Source: a virus (lineage: Duplodnaviria > Heunggongvirae > Uroviricota > Caudoviricetes). From it: a stretch of 10,956 nt of DNA. The notes below the pieces were generated by a model, which was given only the letters and a program-made list of their open reading frames with translations, was not told the DNA's origin and did no database searches. Shown one piece after another: positions 1 to 10,956 of the stretch (position 1 is its first letter; every line of letters begins with the position of its first letter). Location: IMG/VR virus record IMGVR_UViG_2541047722_000006. One strand, written 5' to 3'. The translations under genes were made by a program, and so were the position numbers.

Positions 1-165
1 CTCATGCTGGCGAACCCAGACACGCAGAGTCTCCGGCGTACAGCCAATCTTTGGAGCAATGGAACAAATTGTCGCCCATTGTGAGTCATATTCGCTCTGA
101 CTTTCCAGAACCATACGGACTGCCCGTTGACGGACTTCGGGGGAAAAACGAGTATTTTTAGTCAT
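1..165 (-). CDS. IS629 transposase OrfA, N-terminal part (continues beyond window start)
   Basis: ATG at 165-163 (minus) preceded by AGAGGT, giving [55 protein letters not shown], identical to OrfA of the complete copy. Confidence 0.85.
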
Positions 166-219
166 CCTGTTTACCTCTTTCTCAGGAAGTTTAGTCTCCA
201 GGATTCCCGGGGCGGTTCA
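1..219 (-). mobile_element. IS629 (IS3 family), partial copy running off the window start; left terminal repeat at 219
   Basis: The reverse complement of 1-219 is identical to the first 219 bp of the complete copy at 3495-3713 (TGAACCGCCCCGGGAATCCTGGAGACTAAACTTCC...). The terminus abuts unrelated sequence at 219/220. Confidence 0.9.
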
Positions 220-731
220 GCCCTGTTAACACTGCCACTGTTGGGCAACTTCAGAACCACTGTCTCACCGCATTATCTCAAGGCGCAACTGAATTAAATA
301 TCCATATATCAAGTCAGGGAGGGGAAACTGCTGCTGGCTTTACTGCGTATAACTTTCTTAAGTCACTCCCTGTTACCGTTAGAACTCACAACATAAGCAA
401 TGTTGAATCCATAGCTAATATCGTTTTCCTGGCTGGCTCAGAACGTTTCGCAAACCCATTATCAAGATTCCTGTTACATCCTCTATTATGGTGCTTTGCC
501 TCCCCAGCCGCCGACCATGCCAGATTGAGAGAGTACGGGAAATGCCTCGATAACGATCTTGATCGCTTCGTTGAGACGTTCAATATCGACATCGGAACCC
601 ATATTAGGTGGGCATCCCTGATAGCAGACTCGACCATTTTGGATGCTAACAAGGCTCTTGAGCATGGCATAATTAATTCCATAAAAACTGCAAGGCTGGC
701 ATCCAATCAGGCAAACTGGTGGGTTGTTTGA
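220..731 (+). pseudogene. ClpP-like (peptidase S14 fold) serine protease gene, 5' end removed or interrupted by IS629
   Basis: The plus frame is open with no stop from the IS629 junction (220) to TGA at 729-731. The translation (...NIHYSSGGETAAGFTAYNFLKSLPVTVRTHNISNVESIANIVFLAGSERFANPLSRFLLHPLL...IADSTILDANKALEHGIINSIK) aligns by eye with E. coli ClpP ([63 protein letters not shown]...[21 protein letters not shown]). Candidate Ser/His/Asp positions are present. There is no in-frame start between the junction and the TTG at 525, and about 40 or more N-terminal residues expected from ClpP are missing. Confidence 0.55.
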
Positions 732-756
732 TGGGTAAATCATGATTACTCCTTAT

Positions 757-778
757 AAAAAACCCACCTGACGGTGGG
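757..778 (-). terminator. Rho-independent terminator of the 188-aa/YafO-like operon (possibly bidirectional)
   Basis: Hairpin CCCACC-tgac-GGTGGG (763-778) directly after the YafO-like stop codon (780-782); on the minus strand it is followed by TTTTTTAT (762-755). On the plus strand only TTT follows. Confidence 0.55.
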
Positions 779-779
779 T

Positions 780-1229
780 TTAGTCAAACATAGTGTTTCT
801 AAAGTCTCTCGCATACCCTGCTAACACTCTCATTCTATTATGATTGTTAGCAGACATGTGAGCTACAGGATGAAAAAGAGCAATCAATGAATACCTGTTC
901 TCATCAAAAAGATTTTGTGCATAAACGAGAGCGGTATTGGATGTTTTATGCCACTGCAACTTTTGCGGTGTGCTGATATCTGTGCCATTTTTTATTGGCT
1001 CAAATTTATTTTCACCAATTGCTAAATGAAGGTGCATAAGGCCTGCATCTTCAATATCAGGAGGTCGATGATAAGAGGTGTCTCTGCCAAAATAGCTGGG
1101 CAACGTTCCCGTAGACTTGTAGATGATAAAATCATCTACAAGTGTTTGTTTTAAATCAGGAAACTCAACAAAAACCGGGGAGAAAAAATAGTCAAAACTA
1201 TCCTGATTATATTCCACGGTTACTTGCAT
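780..1229 (-). CDS. YafO-family toxin-like protein (type II TA toxin family, ribosome-dependent mRNA interferase), 149 aa
   Basis: ATG at 1229 preceded by GAGGT plus a 5-nt spacer, 8 nt after the stop of the upstream gene. The translation shares the motifs I recall from E. coli YafO: DFIIYKSTGTLPSYFGRD (YafO DFISYKRDGVLPDTFGRD), HLHLA (HIHLA), ALVYAQNLFDE (HLVYCQGAFDE), and a C-terminal AHMSANNHNRMRVLAGYARDFR (HKLARDNNQMHKIGKMAEAFR). AT-rich. Confidence 0.7.
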   Translation of the reverse strand: MQVTVEYNQDSFDYFFSPVFVEFPDLKQTLVDDFIIYKSTGTLPSYFGRDTSYHRPPDIEDAGLMHLHLAIGENKFEPIKNGTDISTPQKLQWHKTSNTALVYAQNLFDENRYSLIALFHPVAHMSANNHNRMRVLAGYARDFRNTMFD

Positions 1230-1237
1230 GTTTTACC

Positions 1238-1804
1238 TCAGTGGAAGTTACCAGAGTGAAACACACGAGTCCCGTGCTCAGCAAGCGCACGCAAACCAGC
1301 CATATCTACGGAACTATCAAAAACAACCGGAACACATGAGCGTTGTTTAATAAGACTATTCAGGTTGGTTACGGCAGATCTGGCATCAGCAACAACGATA
1401 TAGATATCTCTTGCGATCTCTTTAAAATCAGCAGAAGCTTCTTTGAATACCGATTTCATTGCCCCTTCAAGTCCTCTCAATTGATGCTCTATCAATCGAG
1501 ACTTTTCTGGTTCAATGATAGACAACACATTGTCTACATTCTCATCGGTAGCGTTTGCAAGAACACGATAAGCGTATTTCAGCATTCGAGACAATTCTTT
1601 AATCGAAGACACCGCCTCATGAAGCTCATCATTAGCCCGTTCACTGCTGAATGAGGATTGATGGTAAGCGTGCTGAACGTTATCAGTAACAACCACCTCA
1701 CAACTGAACGCAGAAGCTTGCTGTAATAGCAAACCTATTGCGACTCCAGCTTTGGCAGCGTTCAAGCTAAACATTTCATCAATCCCATTAGTCTCATTGC
1801 TCAT
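1238..1804 (-). CDS. Hypothetical 188-aa protein, first gene of the operon with the YafO-like toxin; no family recognised
   Basis: ATG at 1804 is preceded by a perfect AAGGAGG Shine-Dalgarno with a 5-nt spacer. The ORF track's longer 198-aa version starts at a TTG (1834) without a ribosome-binding site. The protein looks mostly helical, with no HTH or catalytic motif I can recognise, and is not YafN/Phd-like. Confidence 0.65.
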   Translation of the reverse strand: MSNETNGIDEMFSLNAAKAGVAIGLLLQQASAFSCEVVVTDNVQHAYHQSSFSSERANDELHEAVSSIKELSRMLKYAYRVLANATDENVDNVLSIIEPEKSRLIEHQLRGLEGAMKSVFKEASADFKEIARDIYIVVADARSAVTNLNSLIKQRSCVPVVFDSSVDMAGLRALAEHGTRVFHSGNFH

Positions 1805-1871
1805 ACAAACCTCCTTCTTATCGGAGATTATCAATAGCTATGCATCCATTGAATACACGCTATGCGCAATA

Positions 1872-1900
1872 AGTTTACGTCACGTGATATCATTATGCAA
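1872..1900 (-). promoter_or_regulatory. Putative sigma70 promoter of the 188-aa/YafO-like operon with an embedded palindromic operator candidate
   Basis: On the minus strand: TTGCAT (1900-1895), 17-nt spacer, TAAACT (1877-1872), about 65 nt upstream of the ATG at 1804. The spacer contains the perfect 8-bp palindrome TCACGTGA (1880-1887). Prediction by eye only. Confidence 0.3.
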
Positions 1901-1979
1901 CCACCGTTCTATCACCGACTAACTTTACTCCCACTCCTATACATCATCTGGTATCCTGCGCAAAACTAAGGAGGTTGGT

Positions 1980-2330
1980 GTGAATGCTCAGTCTGTCATC
2001 ATGGTTTTCCTTGGGCTGATTGTCGCAAAACTATATCCAGACTGGTGGAAAGGGGCATTAGCTACTGTCGCCATCTATTTGCTTTTATCCATCGTTAAGC
2101 GATCACTCGCTGAGACCGTAAATCAAGCAAAACGTTTCTCATTTAAGAGTTTAATAAACTATGTTACTGGGCTTATTTTTTGCCTTTCAATTCTGATCGC
2201 TTCGGCTTTTTTGCCCGTATCAATAGCTAATTTTTTTGGCGCACCATATGAGGTAGGTTATCTATTCTCTGTTTCCTGTCTTGCCATTGCTCTTCTTTAC
2301 CTGTGGACGAGATCAAAGAATAAAAATTAG
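1980..2330 (+). CDS. Small multi-pass inner-membrane protein (116 aa), possible superinfection-exclusion-type moron
   Basis: GTG start at 1980 with a strong AAGGAGG (1968-1974) 5 nt upstream. Three to four hydrophobic helices (SVIMVFLGLIVAKLY, ALATVAIYLLLSIV, LINYVTGLIFCLSILIASAFLPV, VGYLFSVSCLAIALLYLW) and a basic C-terminus (TRSKNKN). AT-rich, convergent with gp16. Confidence 0.6.
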   Translation: MNAQSVIMVFLGLIVAKLYPDWWKGALATVAIYLLLSIVKRSLAETVNQAKRFSFKSLINYVTGLIFCLSILIASAFLPVSIANFFGAPYEVGYLFSVSCLAIALLYLWTRSKNKN

Positions 2331-2347
2331 CCATCCGTGGCTGCCAG

Positions 2348-3494
2348 TTATTGAGCTTCTTTTTGTGATGCCTGTGCGACTCTGGTGAGCGATTGTGTGA
2401 CCGTACTGATCGCTCTGTCATATGCTGTGCTACCTTTTGGCGTATTTGCCAGACGTAACAAGGCATTTCGTATAACAGGGCTTTCGTATGCCTTCGCAGC
2501 TCCTCCTACGACACCAGCAGCAGGAACAACAAACGCAGCCGTTTTTAGCATCCCCGCTAATACTGCTGCGTTTATGATGCCACCACCAACTAACAATCCA
2601 TAAAGCTGCTGACCATTTAAGTTTTGAACGTTCGCTTTTGCCGCGTGTCTTGTATCGTTGAGGTATTTAATAACGCCGTCCAGTTCCTTTCCATGTACGC
2701 CTTTAAAGAAAGTTGCTGATTGCTTCCTGTTCCGGTGTAACGCATTAATAAACTTTTCAACACTAATATTTCCAGACGGATCAGTCGCCTTATCTACAGC
2801 ATTCTGAACTATGGCTGCTCGTGCGTTTTGCCTACCATTGTCATCCAGAAGCCTGTAAAGCTGAGAACGTTCTGATGGGTTTTGGCTAAAAACGAGTTTT
2901 GTTACATCCTCAGGTGTAGCCTTGCCGCTGGCTATTGCCTTTTGAACGCGCGTTCTTCCCATCATGTCATTGAATCTAGCCCATGAGCGATCAACCCTAG
3001 ACATATTGGCAGCTTCTTCTGAGCCTAGTTTTTGGGATACTGCTTTTTTCATATCCGCTGTATATGCCTTGTAGACAATATCGCTGGCTTTCTGGAGCGT
3101 GTCTTTATCAACAGTCTCGTTTGAATTCATGAACCGCTTTCGAAGGTCAGTTCTGTTTTCTCTCGCCAGACGCAGGTCATTGGGTCCGCTGGTGATATCG
3201 TCTTTAAATTGCTGCAAGACTTTTACCGCGGCTCTATCCTGAGATTTGCCCGGGCGGCTTAACACGGCAATCTGATTGTCGATAGCTTTTACCGTGTTTG
3301 AGAGATCGACAGGGGTATCCCCCATAGCGTCAATTATGCGGTTATATCGCTTTCCTGCTGCCTCAATGAATTTTTGTTGCCCTTTAGTCGCAGATTCATA
3401 AAGCTGTTTATCAGAAATGCCACCCAGACCATCGCTAAATGTTCTGACTAAATTTTCTCGTGCTTGTTGTTGATTCAGCCGATTCTTACCGGTT
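2348..3494 (-). pseudogene. P22 gp16-like DNA-ejection (transfer) protein, C-terminal fragment separated from its 5' part by IS629
   Basis: The minus frame is open from the IS629 junction (3494) to TAA at 2350-2348 (checked codon by codon for 3326-3494). It is in frame with the N-terminal fragment once the IS and one copy of the duplication are removed. Position after gp20 matches P22 gene order. Confidence 0.8.
3492..3494. repeat. Target-site duplication (GTT), left copy, of the IS629 insertion in gp16
   Basis: GTT immediately precedes the IS629 terminus TGAACCGCC at 3495; the same triplet follows the other terminus at 4805-4807. Confidence 0.6.
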
Positions 3495-3548
3495 TGAACC
3501 GCCCCGGGAATCCTGGAGACTAAACTTCCTGAGAAAGAGGTAAACAGG

Positions 3549-3875
3549 ATGACTAAAAATACTCGTTTTTCCCCCGAAGTCCGTCAACGGGCAGTCCGTA
3601 TGGTTCTGGAAAGTCAGAGCGAATATGACTCACAATGGGCGACAATTTGTTCCATTGCTCCAAAGATTGGCTGTACGCCGGAGACTCTGCGTGTCTGGGT
3701 TCGCCAGCATGAGCGGGATACCGGGGGCGGTGATGGAGGGCTCACCACCGCTGAACGTCAGCGTCTGAAAGAGCTGGAACGTGAAAATCGTGAACTGCGC
3801 CGCAGTAACGATATCCTTCGCCAGGCTTCCGCTTATTTTGCGAAGGCGGAGTTCGACCGCCTCTGGAAAAAATGA
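3549..3875 (+). CDS. IS629 transposase OrfA (108 aa, HTH DNA-binding part)
   Basis: ATG at 3549 preceded by AGAGGT. The protein has the leucine-zipper-like C-terminus ([29 protein letters not shown]) typical of IS3-family OrfA. Confidence 0.9.
3867..3873 (+). promoter_or_regulatory. Putative programmed -1 ribosomal frameshift site (A6 run) for the OrfAB fusion transposase
   Basis: AAAAAA at 3867-3872 lies at the end of orfA, just before its TGA (3873-3875); orfB begins in the -1 frame at 3872. IS3-family elements are known to make a fused OrfAB transposase by -1 slippage. Confidence 0.5.
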
Positions 3876-4762
3876 TGCCACTGCTGGATAAGCTGCGTGA
3901 GCAGTACGGGGTCGGACCGCTATGCAGCGAACTGCATATTGCCCCGTCAACGTATTACCACTGTCAGCAACAGCGACATCATCCGGATAAACGCAGTGCC
4001 CGTGCGCAGCGCGATGACTGGCTGAAGAAAGAGATACAGCGCGTATACGATGAAAATCACAAGGTATACGGTGTGCGTAAAGTCTGGCGTCAGTTGTTAC
4101 GGGAAGGTATCAGAGTGGCCAGATGCACTGTGGCACGTCTCATGGCGGTTATGGGACTTGCCGGTGTTCTCCGGGGTAAAAAGGTCCGTACGACCATCAG
4201 CCGGAAAGCCGTTGCCGCAGGCGACCGCGTAAACCGTCAGTTCGTGGCAGAACGACCTGACCAGCTGTGGGTGGCTGATTTTACTTACGTCAGCACATGG
4301 CGGGGCTTCGTCTATGTGGCGTTCATCATTGATGTGTTTGCCGGATACATCGTGGGGTGGCGGGTCTCATCGTCCATGGAAACGACATTCGTGCTGGATG
4401 CACTGGAGCAGGCGTTATGGGCCCGTCGACCGTCCGGCACGGTCCATCACAGTGATAAAGGTTCTCAGTATGTATCGCTGGCCTACACACAGCGGCTTAA
4501 GGAAGCCGGATTACTGGCATCAACAGGAAGTACAGGCGACTCGTATGACAACGCGATGGCGGAGAGCATCAATGGTCTTTACAAAGCGGAGGTAATACAC
4601 CGTAAGAGCTGGAAAAACCGTGCAGAAGTGGAACTGGCCACACTCACGTGGGTGGACTGGTATAACAATCGACGATTGCTGGAAAGGCTGGGCCATACTC
4701 CTCCGGCAGAAGCAGAAAAAGCTTATTATGCTTCCATCGGAAACGATGATCTGGCAGCCTGA
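3872..4762 (+). CDS. IS629 transposase OrfB (DDE/RNase H-fold catalytic part, 296 aa); expressed mainly as an OrfAB fusion spanning 3549-4762
   Basis: ORF in the -1 frame relative to orfA, overlapping it by 4 nt. Contains motifs of an IS3-family integrase core (WVADFTYV...HHSDKGSQY...[15 protein letters not shown]). Confidence 0.9.
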
Positions 4763-4804
4763 GTTCACAGATAAAACACTCTCCAGGAAACCCGGGGCGG
4801 TTCA

Positions 4805-4807
4805 GTT
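4805..4807. repeat. Target-site duplication (GTT), right copy, of the IS629 insertion in gp16
   Basis: GTT directly after the IS629 right terminus at 4804, matching 3492-3494. Confidence 0.6.
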
Positions 4808-5676
4808 CCAAAAAAAGGAACTCTTTCGCCTAATGTCTGAGCCTGACTCTGCATAAAGGTTTTATCTTTCAGCGTGTCACTGGTCATTAACGGCAGGTTT
4901 CTTTCCGACGCAAAATCGACAGCAGCCTTTGCTTCCGGTGACATCTCACCGCGAACAGCCCTGGAAACCGCACTAACTGTATTTTCCAGCCCCTTGCCAA
5001 CACCACCAATGCCAGCAGAAATTACCGTTTGTGCAGGATCAATATCTTCTCCGCCAGCAAGGCTGGTGCCACCCTGTAGTGCTAAATCTGTAGCAGCTGA
5101 TTTCCCTATGGCACCAAGCACCGTTCCAGCCCTGCCCGCTGGTGTGAACGCTAACGCATTAGCAAGAAACGAAGTCAGGTCTTGCGGTGATAAACCTGGC
5201 TTGTTCAGGGCATAATCACCGGATGGCAGGGAAACGATAGTGTTACCCTTCTCATCCTGCCTTAATTTCGCCCCCATACTCTGAAGAATCTTTTCCTGAG
5301 ACGCGTCGGAGCCGAAAAGTTGAGACCATCCAGCCTTCAGGGCATCCATGCTTAGTGAGTTCAACTCAGGGGCAGCCCCAACATTTTGCAGTCTCTCCAT
5401 TTCTGGTGTCATTCGGCTTTCACCGGTAACGGCATCGCGCATTGCAGCACCTAAAACAGCCCCTTGCTCAGCAGAGCGATCTAGTCCTTCCTTCTGCTGA
5501 GTGGCAAGCTGTGCATATCCTGATGCAAGTGAGTTGTCTGCTGGCGATTGCTGAACACCTTGTTGTGTTGGCGCTGACTGACCAGCAAAATACTCATCAA
5601 TGGCGGACCCAATATCTTCCGTGCTCGTACCATCAGGAAAGGTAAATGTCTTACCATTTGCAGTTACTTTCATCAT
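4805..5676 (-). pseudogene. P22 gp16-like DNA-ejection (transfer) protein, N-terminal fragment truncated by IS629
   Basis: ATG at 5676 overlaps the gp20 stop (ATGA). The N-terminus [33 protein letters not shown] matches my memory of P22 gp16. The present ORF (4765-5676) reads 12 codons into IS629 (EPPRVSWRVFYL) before stopping; native sequence ends at 4805. Confidence 0.8.
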
Positions 5677-7124
5677 TCCACCGTAAATTGAATGCCTGAT
5701 TTTGACGTGTAGCTACCTCCTGCTGATTGCTGAGTAGCTGGCTGTTGCCTTGATGATTTCTTCCCGCCATTACCAACATTAACGTTATATTGCTGGTTGT
5801 AATTGTCGGTATATTGCTGAATGTCGCGCATTGATTGTTGCAGCGCTTCAGGACTTGAGAAATCAGGCTTTGGCATACCCTGAAAATACCTATTGGCCTC
5901 TGCTTCGGTGTTGATGCCAGATGCCCCCATATCTCGGGCTGCTGCAATCCCCTGATTTTGCATTTTGCCCATGATTCGCTGTGCAGCGTTGTATAGCCTC
6001 CTCTCCTCAACACCAGATGCCCTGCTACGAATATCTGCACCAAGAGCAAAAGAACCTGAAGAACCTGTAATACCTGTCATGAAGCCAAGATCGTCAATTG
6101 ATGCGCCAGAAATTGCATCAAGATCTTTCTTCATTTCGTAATTCTGTGCATTAGCTGCCGATGTAGCCGGAGCAGCAATAGAACTGGCGGGGACGCGAAT
6201 CATATTGCCCTCGTTGTCTATTCCTTCGTAGAACGCATTAGCACCAGCGCCGTGAAGCTTCCTACCAACCGTTACCGTTCTGCCATCTGCCAGTTGCACA
6301 ACATTCTCCCCGCCAGCATCAGGACGACCTCGAACACGAAGATATGTCTTTTGTTGCTCTGGAGACAGGCTGTTGAAATATTGATATTCTTTAACAGATG
6401 CAGGAACAGCACCTCCAGCAGTGCGCAGGGAGTTTTCACGGCTAACAGCAATGCTTTGCGCCTTTAAACCTTCCCCAGCTTTATTGCTGCGAATCGTCTC
6501 TGCCAACTTGCCACGCTCAATATCCCGACCTTCCATTTGATCTTTGATATCGAAATACTTCTCATGACCGAGAGAAAATAGTGCCAGATTACCTGCGAAG
6601 TGCTGGAAGCCCTGCGGGTCATTAACCTGCATTTCCGCAATAGTTTCTGGAGGGATACCTAAACGACGCATCTCCTTTTCGTTATCCATCATGAACCTGC
6701 CAAATGCACCCGGACCAAGCGACGAAGCGACCTGAGCCTTAAGCGCCAGATTGCCAAAATCATCCCGCTGGGCGTCATCGACATACCCCATGCCTTTACG
6801 GACTTCCTCAAACTCTTCGGGGAATGCTGTAATAAGATTACGCATCTGCTCCCTGTCGCCGGACGCATAAGCATCCGCATAACCTTTCTGGAATGCCGCT
6901 TTACGCTCCTGCTTTTGCTGCTGCTTATAAATATCAGCAACTCCAGCCAGACCACGAAGACCTGTCAGAGCAACGTTATTTGCACCTGATCGAGCCAGTT
7001 CATTGTTTTCGCGGATCAGACCAAGCGTTGCGTTAATGTCGCTTGCCTTTGGCGCATTCTCATTTTGCGTACCGATGCCAGCCAGAAACCCACCAGAATT
7101 AATACCCTGTTGCCACGTAGCCAT
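5673..7124 (-). CDS. P22 gp20-like DNA-ejection (transfer) protein, 483 aa
   Basis: ATG at 7124 with GGGGT 5 nt upstream. Size (P22 gp20 is about 471 aa), position between gp7 and gp16, and a Q/N/G-rich low-complexity C-terminus are typical of ejection proteins. Confidence 0.85.
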
Positions 7125-7134
7125 TGATTACCCC

Positions 7135-7827
7135 TTAAAACAACGAGCCAAGCAGACCAAGACCAGCACCGATACCAGCACCCCACGGAGTTGATAGCTC
7201 GAGAGCACTGGCTATGCCACCACCCAAAAGCGCACCGGATGCAGCACCACTAACACCCTGCTGCAATGCTGACGGTCGGTTGGCGTTTGCCGCTGCAAGA
7301 GCCGCGCTTTGCTGTGAAATCTGACTCATGTTGTTGGCATATGTTTGCCCGGCGTTTGCCTGCCCCTGAAGAGCGCCAAGACCGATATTTGCCAGGTTGT
7401 TGTAATTGTTCATTTGTCCAGATAGCCATTGCTGACCAAGCGTTGGTGCGATTGTTGCTAACTGATTACTGGTTGCGGTGGAACCCAATCCACCTGTTGC
7501 TTCCGCTGCCGCCAGACTCTGATAGCGAGCCTGACCTGCAAGGTCTTTATACTGCTGAGAGTTGTAATACTGGTTAAGTGCCTGACCTTGCCCTTCCAGA
7601 GACGATAAGTTCTCAAGGCTGCCGACATACTTCCCAGCCAGAGGAGTAAACAGCTTCAGGTTGTTCATGATGGTGTTGAACTGCTGATTTTGCAGGTCTG
7701 CGGCATACTTCTGAGCTTCTGCTGCATACTTTGCGCTTTTATCAGAACTGCCACCTTTCCCGCCTTTTTCAGGGTAATAAGGTTCCTCGCCGCGCAGTTT
7801 TCTGCCCAGCGTAAATGCATATAACAT
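7135..7827 (-). CDS. P22 gp7-like DNA-ejection (transfer) protein, 230 aa
   Basis: ATG at 7827 with GGGAGA 5 nt upstream. The N-terminus MLYAFTLGRKLRGEEPYYPEKGGKGG matches my memory of P22 gp7 (229 aa); the C-terminus is glycine-rich and hydrophobic. Confidence 0.85.
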   Translation of the reverse strand: MLYAFTLGRKLRGEEPYYPEKGGKGGSSDKSAKYAAEAQKYAADLQNQQFNTIMNNLKLFTPLAGKYVGSLENLSSLEGQGQALNQYYNSQQYKDLAGQARYQSLAAAEATGGLGSTATSNQLATIAPTLGQQWLSGQMNNYNNLANIGLGALQGQANAGQTYANNMSQISQQSAALAAANANRPSALQQGVSGAASGALLGGGIASALELSTPWGAGIGAGLGLLGSLF

Positions 7828-7829
7828 GG

Positions 7830-8285
7830 CTATCTCCCGTGATTCAGGAAGTCGATTAGTTCTTCGCGTGTGGCGCTGTAAAACGTCACGTCATCCACGC
7901 CTTTGAAGTATTTCTTGATGGTTCCTACACGCTTAAGGCCAATCATTGCGCAGTACATCTGCCCGTGGCGGAATTTGCGTGCAGCAAATGATGTGACGCA
8001 CTGAACGGTGGTGTTGGTCAGAATGTATCGCCAGAACGCCAGCCCTATTTCCTTGCTGAAGCCGCGAATCTCTGGCAGGTACATGGCGTGGCAATCGAAT
8101 GTAAGCGGCTGAATCTCCTGATAGTAAACAATGCCGCCAAACTGACCGTGCACGTTCACCTCAAAGTAACGGCAATCAGGTTTGTAGTCGTATCCATCAC
8201 CGTTGTTGCTCCCGGCGATGATGTCAGGGTGATTTCCTACTGCTTCGATCAGGTCGATGTTTCGCGTTGGTTTGAATGTAATCAT
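7830..8285 (-). CDS. P22 gp14-like virion/head assembly protein, 151 aa
   Basis: ATG at 8285 overlaps the gp26 stop (TGATG). Assigned mainly by synteny between the tail needle and gp7; I do not recall the P22 gp14 sequence. Confidence 0.7.
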   Translation of the reverse strand: MITFKPTRNIDLIEAVGNHPDIIAGSNNGDGYDYKPDCRYFEVNVHGQFGGIVYYQEIQPLTFDCHAMYLPEIRGFSKEIGLAFWRYILTNTTVQCVTSFAARKFRHGQMYCAMIGLKRVGTIKKYFKGVDDVTFYSATREELIDFLNHGR

Positions 8286-8986
8286 CAGTCAATCAGCCCA
8301 TGTAATCTAAGTGCTGTTTCAAGCGCCAGAATACGCTGCCGCGCCTGCTCCAAACCTGTAGCGATAGCTGCGACTTCGGATTGTGTGTACGTAGTGCCGA
8401 CCGTGTATGACTGGTTAGCGTTGAATGAGCCAAGAAGTGGTGTGCCTGTGGCCGCTGTCCATCCGGTCTGCCTTGCTCCAACGACCTGAATTCCATCAAC
8501 TGAATATGATGTTTTTACATCCAGCGGTGACGCAAGAGACTGCGATTCTGTTACGGTTTTCGATACGTAATCACTCTTAATGTCAGATATATCGCTTTCT
8601 ACGCCATCCAGTCTTTGGTCAACAGTGACCAGATGCGCCTGAATATCGATAACCTCATCCAGCAAGTAATCAACATCGCTACGCAGTACAACTATCTTCC
8701 CTTCGGCGGTTGTTAACCTGACCTCAAGGAGATTTATCGCTTTTGTGTTTGCGGTGATTCTTGCATCGTGGTCAGCCAGTTCGACATCCTGTTCATCGTT
8801 TTTCACCTGAGCATCGTAAGCGCCCTGACCAGCCTGATTTGCTTTCCCGGCAATTGCGCCGACATCAGCCCCCTGATTAATGACATACAGCAGGTAAGAC
8901 TGGCTGAATATATTGCGTGGAAGGATTGATGTATCGAGCCGCGTCGCCTGCACAATAACAGGGGTGTTGAGATTCGAATCAGCCAT
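8285..8986 (-). CDS. Tail needle protein (P22 gp26-like), 233 aa
   Basis: Start taken as the ATG at 8986, which overlaps the gp10 stop (TAATG). From there the protein begins [73 protein letters not shown], close to the P22 gp26 N-terminus as I recall it, and ends ...LRLHGLID. The longer ORF-track version starts at a GTG (9088) inside gp10. Confidence 0.85.
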
Positions 8987-10404
8987 TACTCGATCCTTAT
9001 CTGGCAGCCAGACAGAGTGACAGGTGACTTCGTGATAACGCGCAATTTGAAGCCGACATTTTTCCTGATGCGCCCGACTCGCTTCCACAAAACGCGTTTG
9101 TCGTAAACAAACGGTTCATTCTGCTCAATCATCTGCTCACGACCGTAATTGATGCCGTCAGTGGTTGCAGAGAGAAAAAGGCGGTCGGCGTACTGCGCAA
9201 CGCCAGTTGAAGATTCAACTTCAAGGTCGAAAACTCTGGCGTTATCCGCTTTGAACAGAGGAGTAAACAGCAGATGCTCCTGTTGCTTGTCGTACTGGCT
9301 GCTGATGTCGAATTGCAATTTCCCGGTCACGGACTCCAGCTTATCGCCGCACGTTATCTGATTGCCTTCGTAAATGAAGTCGATAGCGCGGTACACATCG
9401 TCATACAGACCTGTTTTCAGTACACACCATTGCGGAGCATTGGCGCTTGAAGATGCGTCGTATACGAGGACATGGCGCGGAAGATGGATAATCAGCAGCT
9501 CATGCGCATCAAATCGCAGAGACTCCATCACACCATCAGCCAGTTCATCAGCAGTGTAGGAGCGAAGAATTTTCTCAATGCTCGCGCTGGCGATTGGTGA
9601 CACCTGCCCGGAACCGATGATGTATACAGACGGCGCACCTGTTGCCGGATTGCTGATGAACGCATAGGAATCAGCGAATGGCGTTTTGCAATAGGTTCCG
9701 GCGATGCCTTTTTGCACCATCAGTGATGGCTGTGCGACATACAAAGCAGCACCAACGGTGGTTGCGCCAGTCAGGGAGAAATATTCAATAGTCGATGAAC
9801 CAAAGCAGACGATGAAGTCTCGCCATGTCCCGATACCGATGATGCCGTCCGGCTGCGATTCTGCGCGATATTGTGCACTGTATCGGTCAGGGTGCGATTC
9901 GTCTTCAAGGTCAGTGATAAACCATGAATCAGTTCCGTCTTTTGACCACGCATAACGCCCACGTAAGCGAGTAATGTCGCGAACTGAACCTAACTCATAC
10001 TGCGTGAATCCACTGTCTGTAGGCCAGTTTGAGACGGTTTTAACCGTGCCATCATAACGATACTCGACCAGTTGACCATTAACGCCTACAGCCTGTGATG
10101 TTCGACCATGCGCCATTGATACGCGACCACTTCCGGCGACGTCACCGACTTCGCTTTCTCCTTTGTACAGCTTGCCGCCACACACGCGATAAACAGCACT
10201 CTGCGCCATGTTGTACTCGACGCCGCGCGATATACCATTCACATCAGAACGTTTGGCAATGCCCGGGAATGAGCGAAGATATCCGCTGCTGTTCAGGATT
10301 TCTTTGGGCGTAGCCAACATATTCACTGGCAGATAGTCGATATAGTCGGCGTTTCGAAAGTCTTTGCCGACACCTTTCATAAGCGGAAGTTGCTGAATCG
10401 GCAT
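8986..10404 (-). CDS. P22 gp10-like head-completion / packaged-DNA stabilisation protein, 472 aa
   Basis: ATG at 10404 with GAGGTG 5 nt upstream. The N-terminus [49 protein letters not shown] matches my memory of P22 gp10, and the length is the same (472 aa). Confidence 0.9.
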
Positions 10405-10413
10405 TTATTCACC

Positions 10414-10861
10414 TCACGTACTCGGATCATCTTTCTCGATGTAAAACCGATTCCACGTAAACGCGCTTTTGTTACCACTACCGCGAGGCATGTCATTTCG
10501 CCGCTCAAGTGGTGGTATTTTGGTTAAAGCGATACAGATTGTCTGATATGCACTGTCAGCAGCGGTAAGGAGAGCGTCTGACGGCTGAATGACGTTATCC
10601 ATGCACACTTGCACAGCGAGTTTCAAAGCGACGCCATCATTTGCCCATGCAGGGATGCCTGAATCATCGTCAGGTAACGGCATGATGCCGTTTTCTGTAT
10701 CAGCAAACTGATACCCAAGCTCGATACCTTTCGCCTGCCATGCTGCCATCATGTCTTCGAGGTCATTAATGGCATCTTCAATTGCCTGAGGGTCAGCATC
10801 TGTCAACGTGGCATTGGAATACAGCCCGGCTTTTCGTAAAGCCTTTAGAACGAGATCACCC
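10414..10861 (-). pseudogene. P22 gp4-like head-completion / packaged-DNA stabilisation protein, 5' end interrupted by IS629
   Basis: The minus frame is open from the IS629 junction (10861) to TGA at 10416-10414. The translation from the junction, GDLVLKALRKAGLYSNATLTDADPQAIEDAINDLEDMMAAWQ, resembles the P22 gp4 N-terminal region (MQIKTKGDLVRAALRKLG... as I recall it), so only a few codons and the start codon are missing. The TTG at 10806 used by the ORF track is not a credible start. Confidence 0.7.
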
Positions 10862-10956
10862 TGAACCGCCCCGGGAATCCTGGAGACTAAACTTCCTGAG
10901 AAAGAGGTAAACAGGATGACTAAAAATACTCGTTTTTCCCCCGAAGTCCGTCAACG
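10862..10956 (+). mobile_element. IS629 (IS3 family), partial copy running off the window end; left terminal repeat at 10862
   Basis: 10862-10956 is identical to the first 95 bp of the complete copy (TGAACCGCCCCGGGAATCCTGGAGACTAAACTTCCTGAGAAAGAGGTAAACAGGATGACTAAAAATACTCG...). Confidence 0.9.
10916..10956 (+). CDS. IS629 transposase OrfA, first 13 codons (continues beyond window end)
   Basis: ATG at 10916 with the same AGAGGT ribosome-binding site as the complete copy; translation [13 protein letters not shown]. Confidence 0.8.
   Translation, partial: MTKNTRFSPEVRQ

Follow-up and report, generated by a model that had tools for sequence, protein, structure and literature searches.

Independently assorting genes in the variable slot between gene 16 and mnt of a P22-like Escherichia coli prophage include a YafO-family toxin gene and its conserved upstream partner

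The window analysed in this study is the whole of a 10,956-nucleotide stretch of tailed-phage DNA (Caudoviricetes; IMG/VR record IMGVR_UViG_2541047722_000006), and the region of interest within it, positions 220–2347, carries four genes. These are the 3′ remnant of a ClpP-like protease gene (220–731, plus strand), a YafO-family toxin gene (780–1229, minus strand), a gene for an all-helical protein of 188 aa that is the presumptive antitoxin (1238–1804, minus strand), and a small membrane protein gene (1980–2330, plus strand). According to the maps of strains S88 and FY26 and of phage P22, the region sits between the gp16 homologue and the genes mnt, arc, ant and tailspike. A megablast search of complete Escherichia coli genomes showed that 220–10862, apart from its insertion sequence (IS) DNA, was ~100% identical to a prophage at tRNA-Arg (argW) in S88, avian pathogenic E. 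coli (APEC) O1, and other K1/ST95-type strains. By these sequence matches, the host element is a CUS-3/APEC-1-type P22-like (Lederbergvirus) prophage at argW of the E. coli K1 lineage. We consider it likely that the region is the inner part of the slot known as the ant moron and that it is composed of a ClpP gene belonging to the mnt operon, a putative toxin–antitoxin moron, and a membrane gene in the place of sieA, with an AT-richness that is common to the whole arm of the prophage and with recent IS629 hits.

The slot between genes 16 and 9 of P22-like phages was named the ant moron in a comparison that distinguished ten types in sixteen genomes and drew prophage APEC-1 of APEC O1 among them (Villafane et al., 2008, BMC Microbiol 8:227, PMC2629481). 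Late transcription of P22 reads through the ant moron to gene 9 (PMC2629481). The region, which the first-pass annotation had placed at the end of the late operon, thus lies within the late transcription unit, between gene 16 and the tailspike gene. On the P22 map, the order is 16, sieA, orf59a, mnt, arc, ant, and 9, with sieA, orf59a, and mnt facing against the late operon. The window has the frame of P22: gp16, the membrane gene at the sieA place, the inserted 188-aa–yafO pair, the ClpP-like gene at the orf59a place, and mnt. In S88, the order was intS, a neuO-like acyltransferase gene, a tailspike gene of endosialidase size, ant, arc, mnt, the ClpP-like gene, yafO, the 188-aa gene, the small membrane gene, gp16, and gp20 onward; FY26 agreed with it, reading in the other direction gp16, membrane gene, 188-aa–yafO, ClpP-like gene, mnt, arc, ant, and tailspike.

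Among phages with syntenic virion genes, at least six different contents were found at the slot. P22 itself carries sieA and orf59a. The prophage of CU37RT-2, whose arm is ~97% identical where it could be aligned, encodes the same ClpP-like protein and a homologous membrane protein, but the YafO pair is replaced by an ORF6N protein, a P22AR_C protein, and an HTH-S24 repressor. In strain 400660, another P22-like prophage at argW has identical 188-aa and YafO proteins encoded directly after mnt; it is without the ClpP-like gene and carries a YobH-family gene instead of the membrane gene. In phiv205-1 and MBT-5, the mnt–ClpP arrangement is combined with Panacea-domain cassettes. The type CUS-3 genome (RS218, CP000711) has its head genes, neuO, and tailspike gene in common with the prophage of the window and differs from it in the gp16 and gp20 genes and in the content of the slot, which there consists of mnt, mnt, a 199-aa gene, an overlapping 139-aa YafO-family gene (Pfam E = 3e-11), and hkcB. 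Since CU37RT-2, 400660, phiv205-1, and MBT-5 hold them in different combinations, the genes of 220–2347 are three modules that assort independently and not one island. The view that they are accessory and not core genes was borne out by these other cassettes in close relatives, and no virion-protein match was found for any of them besides a generic ClpP/prohead-protease similarity. The gene content and strands proposed earlier for three transcription units (ClpP-like, plus; 188-aa/YafO-like, minus; membrane protein, plus) also hold, but the ClpP-like gene is not an independent unit, its ATG overlapping the mnt stop codon (TAATG) in intact relatives. The accessory nature of the slot is already in the literature; the modest novelty is the conserved partner–YafO cassette.

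The toxin gene encodes a protein of 149 aa that matched PF13957 with E = 3e-22 (78.9 bits against a cut-off of 25). Its score against the NCBIfam equivalog model NF007377 was 79 bits, with a cut-off of 153, which makes it a member of the family and not an equivalog of K-12 YafO, to which it is 38% identical. YafO represents a family of ribosome-linked mRNA interferases. Positions invariant in 12 phage copies and K-12 YafO included the motifs FG.D..Y, H.H, LVY, and P..H, and the ratio of non-synonymous to synonymous substitution rates (dN/dS) of the toxin was 0.03–0.16.

The stop codon of the 188-aa gene lies 8 nt upstream of the yafO ATG. The junction reads CAC-TGA-GGT-N5-ATG, and the Shine–Dalgarno sequence of yafO overlaps the stop codon of the partner. 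The partner protein had no Pfam, NCBIfam, or PADLOC family and fell in phrog_8416. No YafN-type (Phd/YefM-like) antitoxin was found upstream of the toxin, the 188-aa partner being without similarity to YafN. Its family is rare: a word search gave six clusters, and a profile search among 1.84 billion proteins gave 23 representatives at E ≤ 0.001. Complete members are ~165–190 aa long, except for one called as 249 aa, and keep the motifs GLLxQQ, QLRGLEG, ARSA..LN.LI.Q, and a C-terminal HGT.VF.SG.FH. The AlphaFold2 (AF2) model of the partner had a mean predicted local distance difference test (pLDDT) score of 73 and consisted of six helices.

In all 17 loci that were opened, having been reached from either gene of the pair, the partner was followed by the YafO-family gene with a gap of 0–14 nt. 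These loci included seven P22-like prophage copies, in which the pair adjoins mnt, four tail clusters of siphoviruses (among them a 2-kb contig where the neighbours are the same), a site flanked by genes for a Q-type antiterminator and a holin, three weaker relatives (down to E = 2e-4), and one metagenome contig of the Joint Genome Institute (JGI). In phage HK639, the pair corresponds to genes 17 and 18 (3962–4980 of locus record L031), annotated as ‘unknown’ and located between the tape-measure and minor tail genes. The pair of the Pseudomonas prophage vB_PaeS-D14L (1507–2459 of locus record L032) consists of a YafO gene preceded, with an 8-nt gap, by the gene for a 167-aa homologue of the 188-aa partner; its YafO was described earlier as a lone toxin of P. 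aeruginosa prophages (PMC10449497). The pairwise identities of the partner were strongly correlated with those of the toxin (r = 0.93, 66 pairs), which indicates co-divergence of the two proteins. The partner diverges faster (22–65% identity to the window copy, compared to 34–89% for the toxin). The dN/dS values of the pair were 0.03–0.21, with dS often saturated, and point to purifying selection. The guanine-plus-cytosine (GC) content of the pair stays at 42–44% in carrier phages of 44–53%; in the window, the neighbours on both sides are also of low GC.

Directly after the yafO stop codon, an intrinsic terminator of the 188-aa–yafO operon was found at 754–781 (minus strand), with a 9-bp stem at 760–781 and a U6 tract at 754–759. 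Its fold has a free energy of −14.9 kcal/mol, with z-scores of −2.85 on the minus strand and −3.49 on the plus strand. On the plus strand, this hairpin comes after the ClpP-like gene, and a 42-nt piece including it (740–781) is 100% conserved beside the ClpP-like gene in many genomes without the YafO pair. An Rfam scan of 1–3500 gave only sub-threshold, terminator-like matches. The spacer that separates the divergently transcribed 188-aa and membrane genes (1805–1979) is kept along with the pair in other P22-like prophages, and an element TGnTAGAAC/T, similar to an extended −10 box, was present upstream of the pair in eight copies from P22-like and siphovirus genomes. This region probably holds the promoters of both divergent units, although a strict sigma-70 scan of 1805–1979 detected no promoter.

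Strict linkage, co-divergence, the terminator, the −10-like element, and the steady GC content give the pair the properties of a self-contained toxin–partner moron. It would be a bicistronic unit, co-oriented with the late operon and probably transcribed from its own promoter up to a strong terminator, in which a ~190-aa helical protein is followed, with translational coupling, by an mRNA-interferase toxin of the YafO family. The pair is a probable toxin–antitoxin moron with an unrecognised antitoxin family, the upstream 188-aa protein being the putative cognate antitoxin. Expressed in the lysogen, it would act from the prophage either as an abortive-infection or exclusion device against other phages or as an addiction module. 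We hold more tentatively to the full proposal, for which the chances are rather below even, that the pair is an unrecognised two-gene toxin–antitoxin/abortive-infection moron with a new antitoxin family, possibly phage-sensing, that hops among unrelated temperate phages of Enterobacteria and Pseudomonas, where it would settle in the ant moron, in tail gene clusters, or at the Q–holin site. Several results weigh against reading the pair as a toxin–antitoxin moron. The partner has no detectable DNA-binding domain or known antitoxin domain, and its model matched generic helical bundles only. None of the four proteins matched a defence model of PADLOC 2.0, the best match being ZorA (E = 0.004) to the coiled-coil part of the 188-aa protein. 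The AF2 model of the toxin (pLDDT 52) was too poor for a fold search or a check for a RelE-like fold, and the Protein Data Bank (PDB) contains no structure of the YafO family. The co-orientation of the pair with the late genes in most contexts would also fit a function in lytic growth.

The ClpP-like gene is a pseudogene in the window, where only codon 10 to the stop codon is present. The intact coding sequence (CDS) of S88, 11976–12512 in locus record L001, starts with the ATG overlapping the mnt stop codon and encodes 178 aa. The remnant has no in-frame ATG, GTG, or TTG before position 525, and the Prokaryotic Genome Annotation Pipeline (PGAP) marks the same remnant in FY26 as a pseudogene. 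The protein matched PF00574 (E = 2e-11, 44.4 bits against a cut-off of 20.2), and its closest solved structure over the whole length was PpClpP1 (PDB 9UXT, E = 1.6e-35). Ser72 and His95 align with catalytic residues of ClpP1 from Mycobacterium tuberculosis and of 9UXT. Several isolated phages without the YafO pair have a ~99% identical gene. The gene would be the distal one of the mnt operon and is inactivated in the window by IS629. P22-like phages are not known to use a prohead protease, and for this reason the annotation of the gene as a ‘head maturation protease’ is probably misleading. An obligatory link between the protease and the toxin–antitoxin pair, with ClpP degrading the antitoxin, was considered and rejected, as each occurs without the other (CU37RT-2, 400660, phiv205-1).

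The membrane protein gene starts with GTG at 1980, 6 nt after a GGAGG sequence, and encodes 116 aa; RefSeq places the start at the ATG at 2001, giving 109 aa. Four hydrophobic segments were recognised (residues 1–21, 24–44, 57–87, and 91–110). The protein had no family match in Pfam, PADLOC, or NCBIfam, and its homologues are hypothetical proteins of E. coli, Yersinia, Edwardsiella, and Salmonella. The gene was found at 92–94% identity in ~300 E. coli genomes and adjoined a gp16-type gene in both copies that were opened (042 and CU37RT-2). According to Leavitt et al. (2023, PMC10461980), SieA prevents the injection of DNA, and the changes that let phages escape it lie in gp16 and gp20; since the membrane gene adjoins a gp16-type gene, it is by its position a reasonable candidate for a SieA analogue, that is, a superinfection-exclusion protein that may act on incoming ejection proteins. 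What it shares with SieA is only place, orientation, and hydrophobicity, which counts against the analogy. Sequence similarity to P22 SieA was rejected: BLASTP against this protein, to which the comparison within SieA types A–C was confined, gave E = 0.29, and the motif FnRYPnEAnnFNK is absent from the 116-aa sequence. The terminator scan also gave a weak hairpin with a T-run just past the gp16 stop codon (2329–2342, minus strand; −5.7 kcal/mol, z = −0.9).

The copy of the membrane gene in E. coli 042 (locus record L006, NC_017626.1 4205311–4221684) lies in a segment (7973–16374 of that record) together with homologues of gp14, gp7, gp20, and gp16. Near dinD, these homologues have as neighbours the genes for a TOPRIM/DUF927 primase-like protein and a Doc-family toxin, and the annotation of 16 kb shows none for head, portal, or terminase proteins. 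This is an element with no virion proteins but those of ejection, possibly a satellite or a remnant, and part of the ~300 genomes with the membrane gene at 92–94% identity may hold an element of the 042 type.

Three copies of IS629 touch the window, in the ClpP-like gene, in gp16, and in gp4. Of copy 1 (1–219, minus strand), the window contains the first 219 nt, which comprise the left inverted repeat (IRL) end and the beginning of orfA; its orientation is opposite to that of copies 2 and 3. This copy gave 99–100% matches to IS629 of Shiga toxin (Stx) phages, and position 219 is the last of its terminal repeat, ...GGATTCCCGGGGCGGTTCA. Comparison with S88 and FY26 revealed a simple insertion in codon 10 of the ClpP-like gene with a GCC target duplication (220–222). 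The FY26 annotation shows copy 1 as a transposase of the IS3 family, located between mnt and what is left of the ClpP-like gene, and at its left junction ...ttatgcc is followed directly by TGAACC. Copy 2 (3495–4804, plus strand, 1310 bp) interrupts gp16 and is flanked by a GTT duplication (3492–3494 and 4805–4807). Copy 3 is present with its left end (10862–10956, plus strand), interrupts gp4 ~13 nt into the gene, and has a terminal repeat, TGAACCGCCCCGGGAATCC, starting at 10862. The interruption of gp16 and gp4 by IS629, noted already in the first-pass annotation, was confirmed by copies 2 and 3, and the prophage is defective, as had been held. The copy 1 insertion is common to FY26, BEN5202, and NCTC11151, in which the query stretch spanning gp16 is free of IS; copy 1 is therefore not a late event. 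The three copies would be recent and effectively random hits in an IS629-rich strain.

The arrangement of the IS629 copies allows some further observations. Copies 1 and 2 are inverted and bracket the island together with the 3′ part of gp16 (220–3494), both IRL ends pointing inward, as in a composite transposon; recombination between them would invert, not delete, the island. Copies 2 and 3 are direct repeats around 4805–10861, and their recombination would delete the stretch from the N-terminal part of gp16 to gp4. In genomes of the MS20673 type, IS629 adjoins the same C-terminal gp16 remnant, with a large deletion beyond.

The virion genes of the window are on the minus strand in the P22 order. 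They are gp4 (10414–10861), gp10 (8986–10404), the needle gene (8285–8986), gp14 (7830–8285), gp7 (7135–7827), gp20 (5673–7124), and gp16 (2348–5676 including the IS629 copy). The gp4 gene lacks approximately its first 13 nt; the gp4 CDS of S88 maps to 10414–10875, and the match to the prophage stops at 10862. The ejection protein gp16 is divided into a C-terminal part (2348–3494), continuous in composition with the island, and an N-terminal part (4805–5676); its S88 counterpart is an intact 2013-nt gene annotated as P22-gp16 family. At the other end of the prophage, beside intS, the neuO-like acyltransferase CDS is annotated with lengths of 336, 840, 861, and 1071 nt in four otherwise identical prophages (L001 6238–6573, L003 5880–6719, L028 11188–12048, and L029 9536–10606, respectively). 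These differences fit a phase-variable tract of the heptanucleotide AAGACTC, of which CUS-3 (CP000711) is annotated with 19 copies; neuO is a known phase-variable capsule O-acetyltransferase gene (PMC3046976).

Three other explanations were weighed. According to one of them, the region is a recently acquired, compositionally foreign island of low GC content, which entered the end of the late operon as one block. The region is indeed AT-richer than the virion genes (42.2% GC against 49.3% in non-IS virion DNA; Mann–Whitney test on 60-nt lines, p = 8e-9), but the difference is ~7 points and not that between one third and one half, as had been estimated. The yafO gene (37.8%) and the membrane gene (39.9%) have the lowest GC content in the window, which speaks for a foreign origin; the 188-aa gene has 43.2%, the ClpP-like gene 45.5%, the C-terminal open reading frame of gp16 (2348–3325) 46.3%, and IS629 copy 1 50.7%. 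No break in composition was found at the expected position of ~2340. In the IS-free S88 copy, the change point of maximum likelihood falls within gp16 (L001 15341), at a distance of ~1.2 kb from the 3′ end of the gene, and none of 200 block shuffles reached the observed likelihood ratio. A fit with two change points in S88 gave a low-GC block (42.5%) of ~9.3 kb, from just after intS to the point inside gp16, spanning neuO, the tailspike gene (44.2%), immI, ant (43.6%), mnt (43.4%), the island, and the 3′ part of gp16. This domain reaches beyond the region on both sides, and position 220 is the end of IS629 copy 1 and no compositional border. P22 shows the same pattern: sieA has 33.7%, the stretch from gene 16 to mnt 41.5%, ant and gene 9 43.6%, and genes 16 and 20 ~50%. 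Low GC content is thus general to the arm from gene 16 to neuO here and in P22 and is no sign of a recent foreign origin. Moreover, other prophages carry the three modules apart from one another, neither flanking repeats nor an integrase gene were found, and the sole mobile DNA is IS629, whose target duplications are those of simple insertions. Taken together, this explanation is very improbable. The change point inside gp16 falls within ~70 nt of the site of IS629 copy 2 (L001 ~15341; window ~3494–3560 in IS-free coordinates). Since the membrane gene is accompanied in other genomes by this 3′ part of gp16, the change point may mark a mosaic recombination joint within gp16.

Another explanation is domestication, in which selection would preserve the accessory genes and let those of the virion degenerate; the first-pass annotation had favoured it, proposing that the cargo and not the phage is maintained. 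It draws on the interruption of gp16 and gp4 and on the distribution of the island core, which was carried by 51 of 5426 genomes: 16 carriers have lost part of the arm from int to terminase, although the other 35 keep at least 88% of it, which speaks against this explanation. Three truncated forms (MS20673, MS8345, and PE144) arose through independent deletions, associated with IS629 or ISEc52, each of which starts within the 3′ portion of gp16 and extends to the side opposite the island. With a synthetic query that joined the 3′ ends of the ClpP-like gene and gp16, none of the 5426 genomes was found to have these flanks brought to a distance of less than 900 nt by loss of the cassette; ~80 clonal genomes appear to hold both flanks (as judged from places exceeding records), and this null result is uninformative on retention. 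If the pair is addictive, its loss would be counter-selected. However, the cargo was hit as well: IS629 interrupts the ClpP-like gene, one of its four genes, at codon 10, and the island, with 2128 of the 9332 non-IS bases, took one of the three IS629 hits against 0.68 expected. The ~100% identity of the non-IS DNA to the intact prophages of S88 and APEC O1 means that the decay is too recent for selection to show. The three island-sparing deletions prove nothing, because they were found by searching for island carriers, and the strains belong to few clonal, ST95-like lineages with very few independent events. The retained arm also holds neuO (PMC3046976), an equally good reason to keep it. The deletions are compatible with an addictive toxin–antitoxin module or with selection for neuO, and the data do not separate selection from chance. 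Domestication is therefore unlikely, and of the earlier interpretation the accessory nature of the genes was supported and their selective retention was not, just as the underlying observation was confirmed in part. Slightly less likely still is a lytic-cycle function of the 188-aa–YafO pair, in which a late phage RNase would shut off or remodel host translation, with the partner as a timer or inhibitor. In each copy of the 188-aa family that was opened (P22-like prophages, four siphovirus tail clusters, HK639, and the Q–holin site), the pair points the same way as the late or tail operon, and P22 late transcription passes through the slot (PMC2629481). Its own strong terminator and conserved −10-like element are, on the other hand, hallmarks of a moron, and its varying position (tail cluster, lysis region, immI) argues against integration in one lytic pathway. 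The pair is dispensable, being absent from the close relatives CU37RT-2 and type CUS-3, and the more distant 199-aa–YafO pair of CUS-3 faces the mnt way, against the late operon.

As a genome feature, the region is ordinary, being another form of the well-known variable site in which P22-like phages house genes expressed in the lysogen; the prophage around it has recently been struck several times by IS629. Of more use is the finding that the known YafO family travels with a dedicated, uncharacterised partner of ~190 aa across many temperate phages. If the preferred reading of the pair as a defence or addiction module is true, it would add a new antitoxin family and allow ‘orphan toxin’ annotations to be corrected. 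An addictive module could also explain the survival of the carrying arm in cut-down prophages and would give a testable reason why parts of decaying prophages persist in K1 lineages of extraintestinal pathogenic E. coli (ExPEC) and APEC. The membrane gene in the sieA place is a cheap candidate for a new superinfection-exclusion protein.

Compared to known systems, the region is closest in place to the ant moron of the APEC-1 type: it has the same position between genes 16 and 9, a variable and non-morphogenetic content, and mnt, arc, and ant as neighbours, and differs in the three IS629 insertions of the window copy. Villafane et al. (2008) treated the inner genes as unique and of unknown function and identified no YafO toxin, ClpP-like gene, or conserved pair (PMC2629481). 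The Panacea (PanA) cassettes of phiv205-1 and MBT-5 occupy the same slot and are likewise small, two-gene, and toxin/antitoxin-like, but their protein families differ from those of the window. The pair of type CUS-3 (CP000711, L022 7577–8580) agrees with that of the window in slot and two-gene architecture; its orientation is the opposite one, that of mnt, and its 199-aa partner has no detectable homology to the 188-aa family (hhalign probability 3%). The presence of this pair with a partner that is not detectably homologous suggests repeated recruitment of YafO-type cassettes to the slot.

The membrane protein resembles P22 SieA in that its gene directly follows gene 16, faces against the late operon, is AT-rich, and has a multi-pass hydrophobic product; SieA is longer (164 vs. 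116 aa), and the two have no sequence similarity. The ClpP-like protein resembles PpClpP1 of Pseudomonas plecoglossicida, described as a ClpP with a short N-terminal end, whose tetradecamer has a wide pore and whose peptidase activity is low (PMC12900304). Both lack the N-terminal axial-loop region of canonical ClpP and are of similar length (178 aa in the phage vs. 183 aa), the Pro of the PpClpP1 triad is Ser in the phage protein, with Asp one residue before, and the phage gene, unlike that of PpClpP1, is co-transcribed with mnt and is a pseudogene in the window. PpClpP1, treated as a second ClpP paralogue in a drug-target study of P. plecoglossicida, is a close relative of the phage-borne short ClpP; on sequence grounds, it may belong to a mobile-element clade and not to the housekeeping Clp system.

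The nearest characterised counterpart of the pair is YafN–YafO of K-12. The two partners are unrelated, YafN having 97 aa and the phage partner 188 aa in an all-helical protein without a recognised DNA-binding domain. The phage toxin has an additional N-terminal stretch of ~28 aa, and the phage pair, unlike YafN–YafO, is not part of the dinB operon. What the two systems have in common is a toxin of PF13957, 38% identical between phage and K-12, and a tightly coupled bicistron in which the partner gene comes first.

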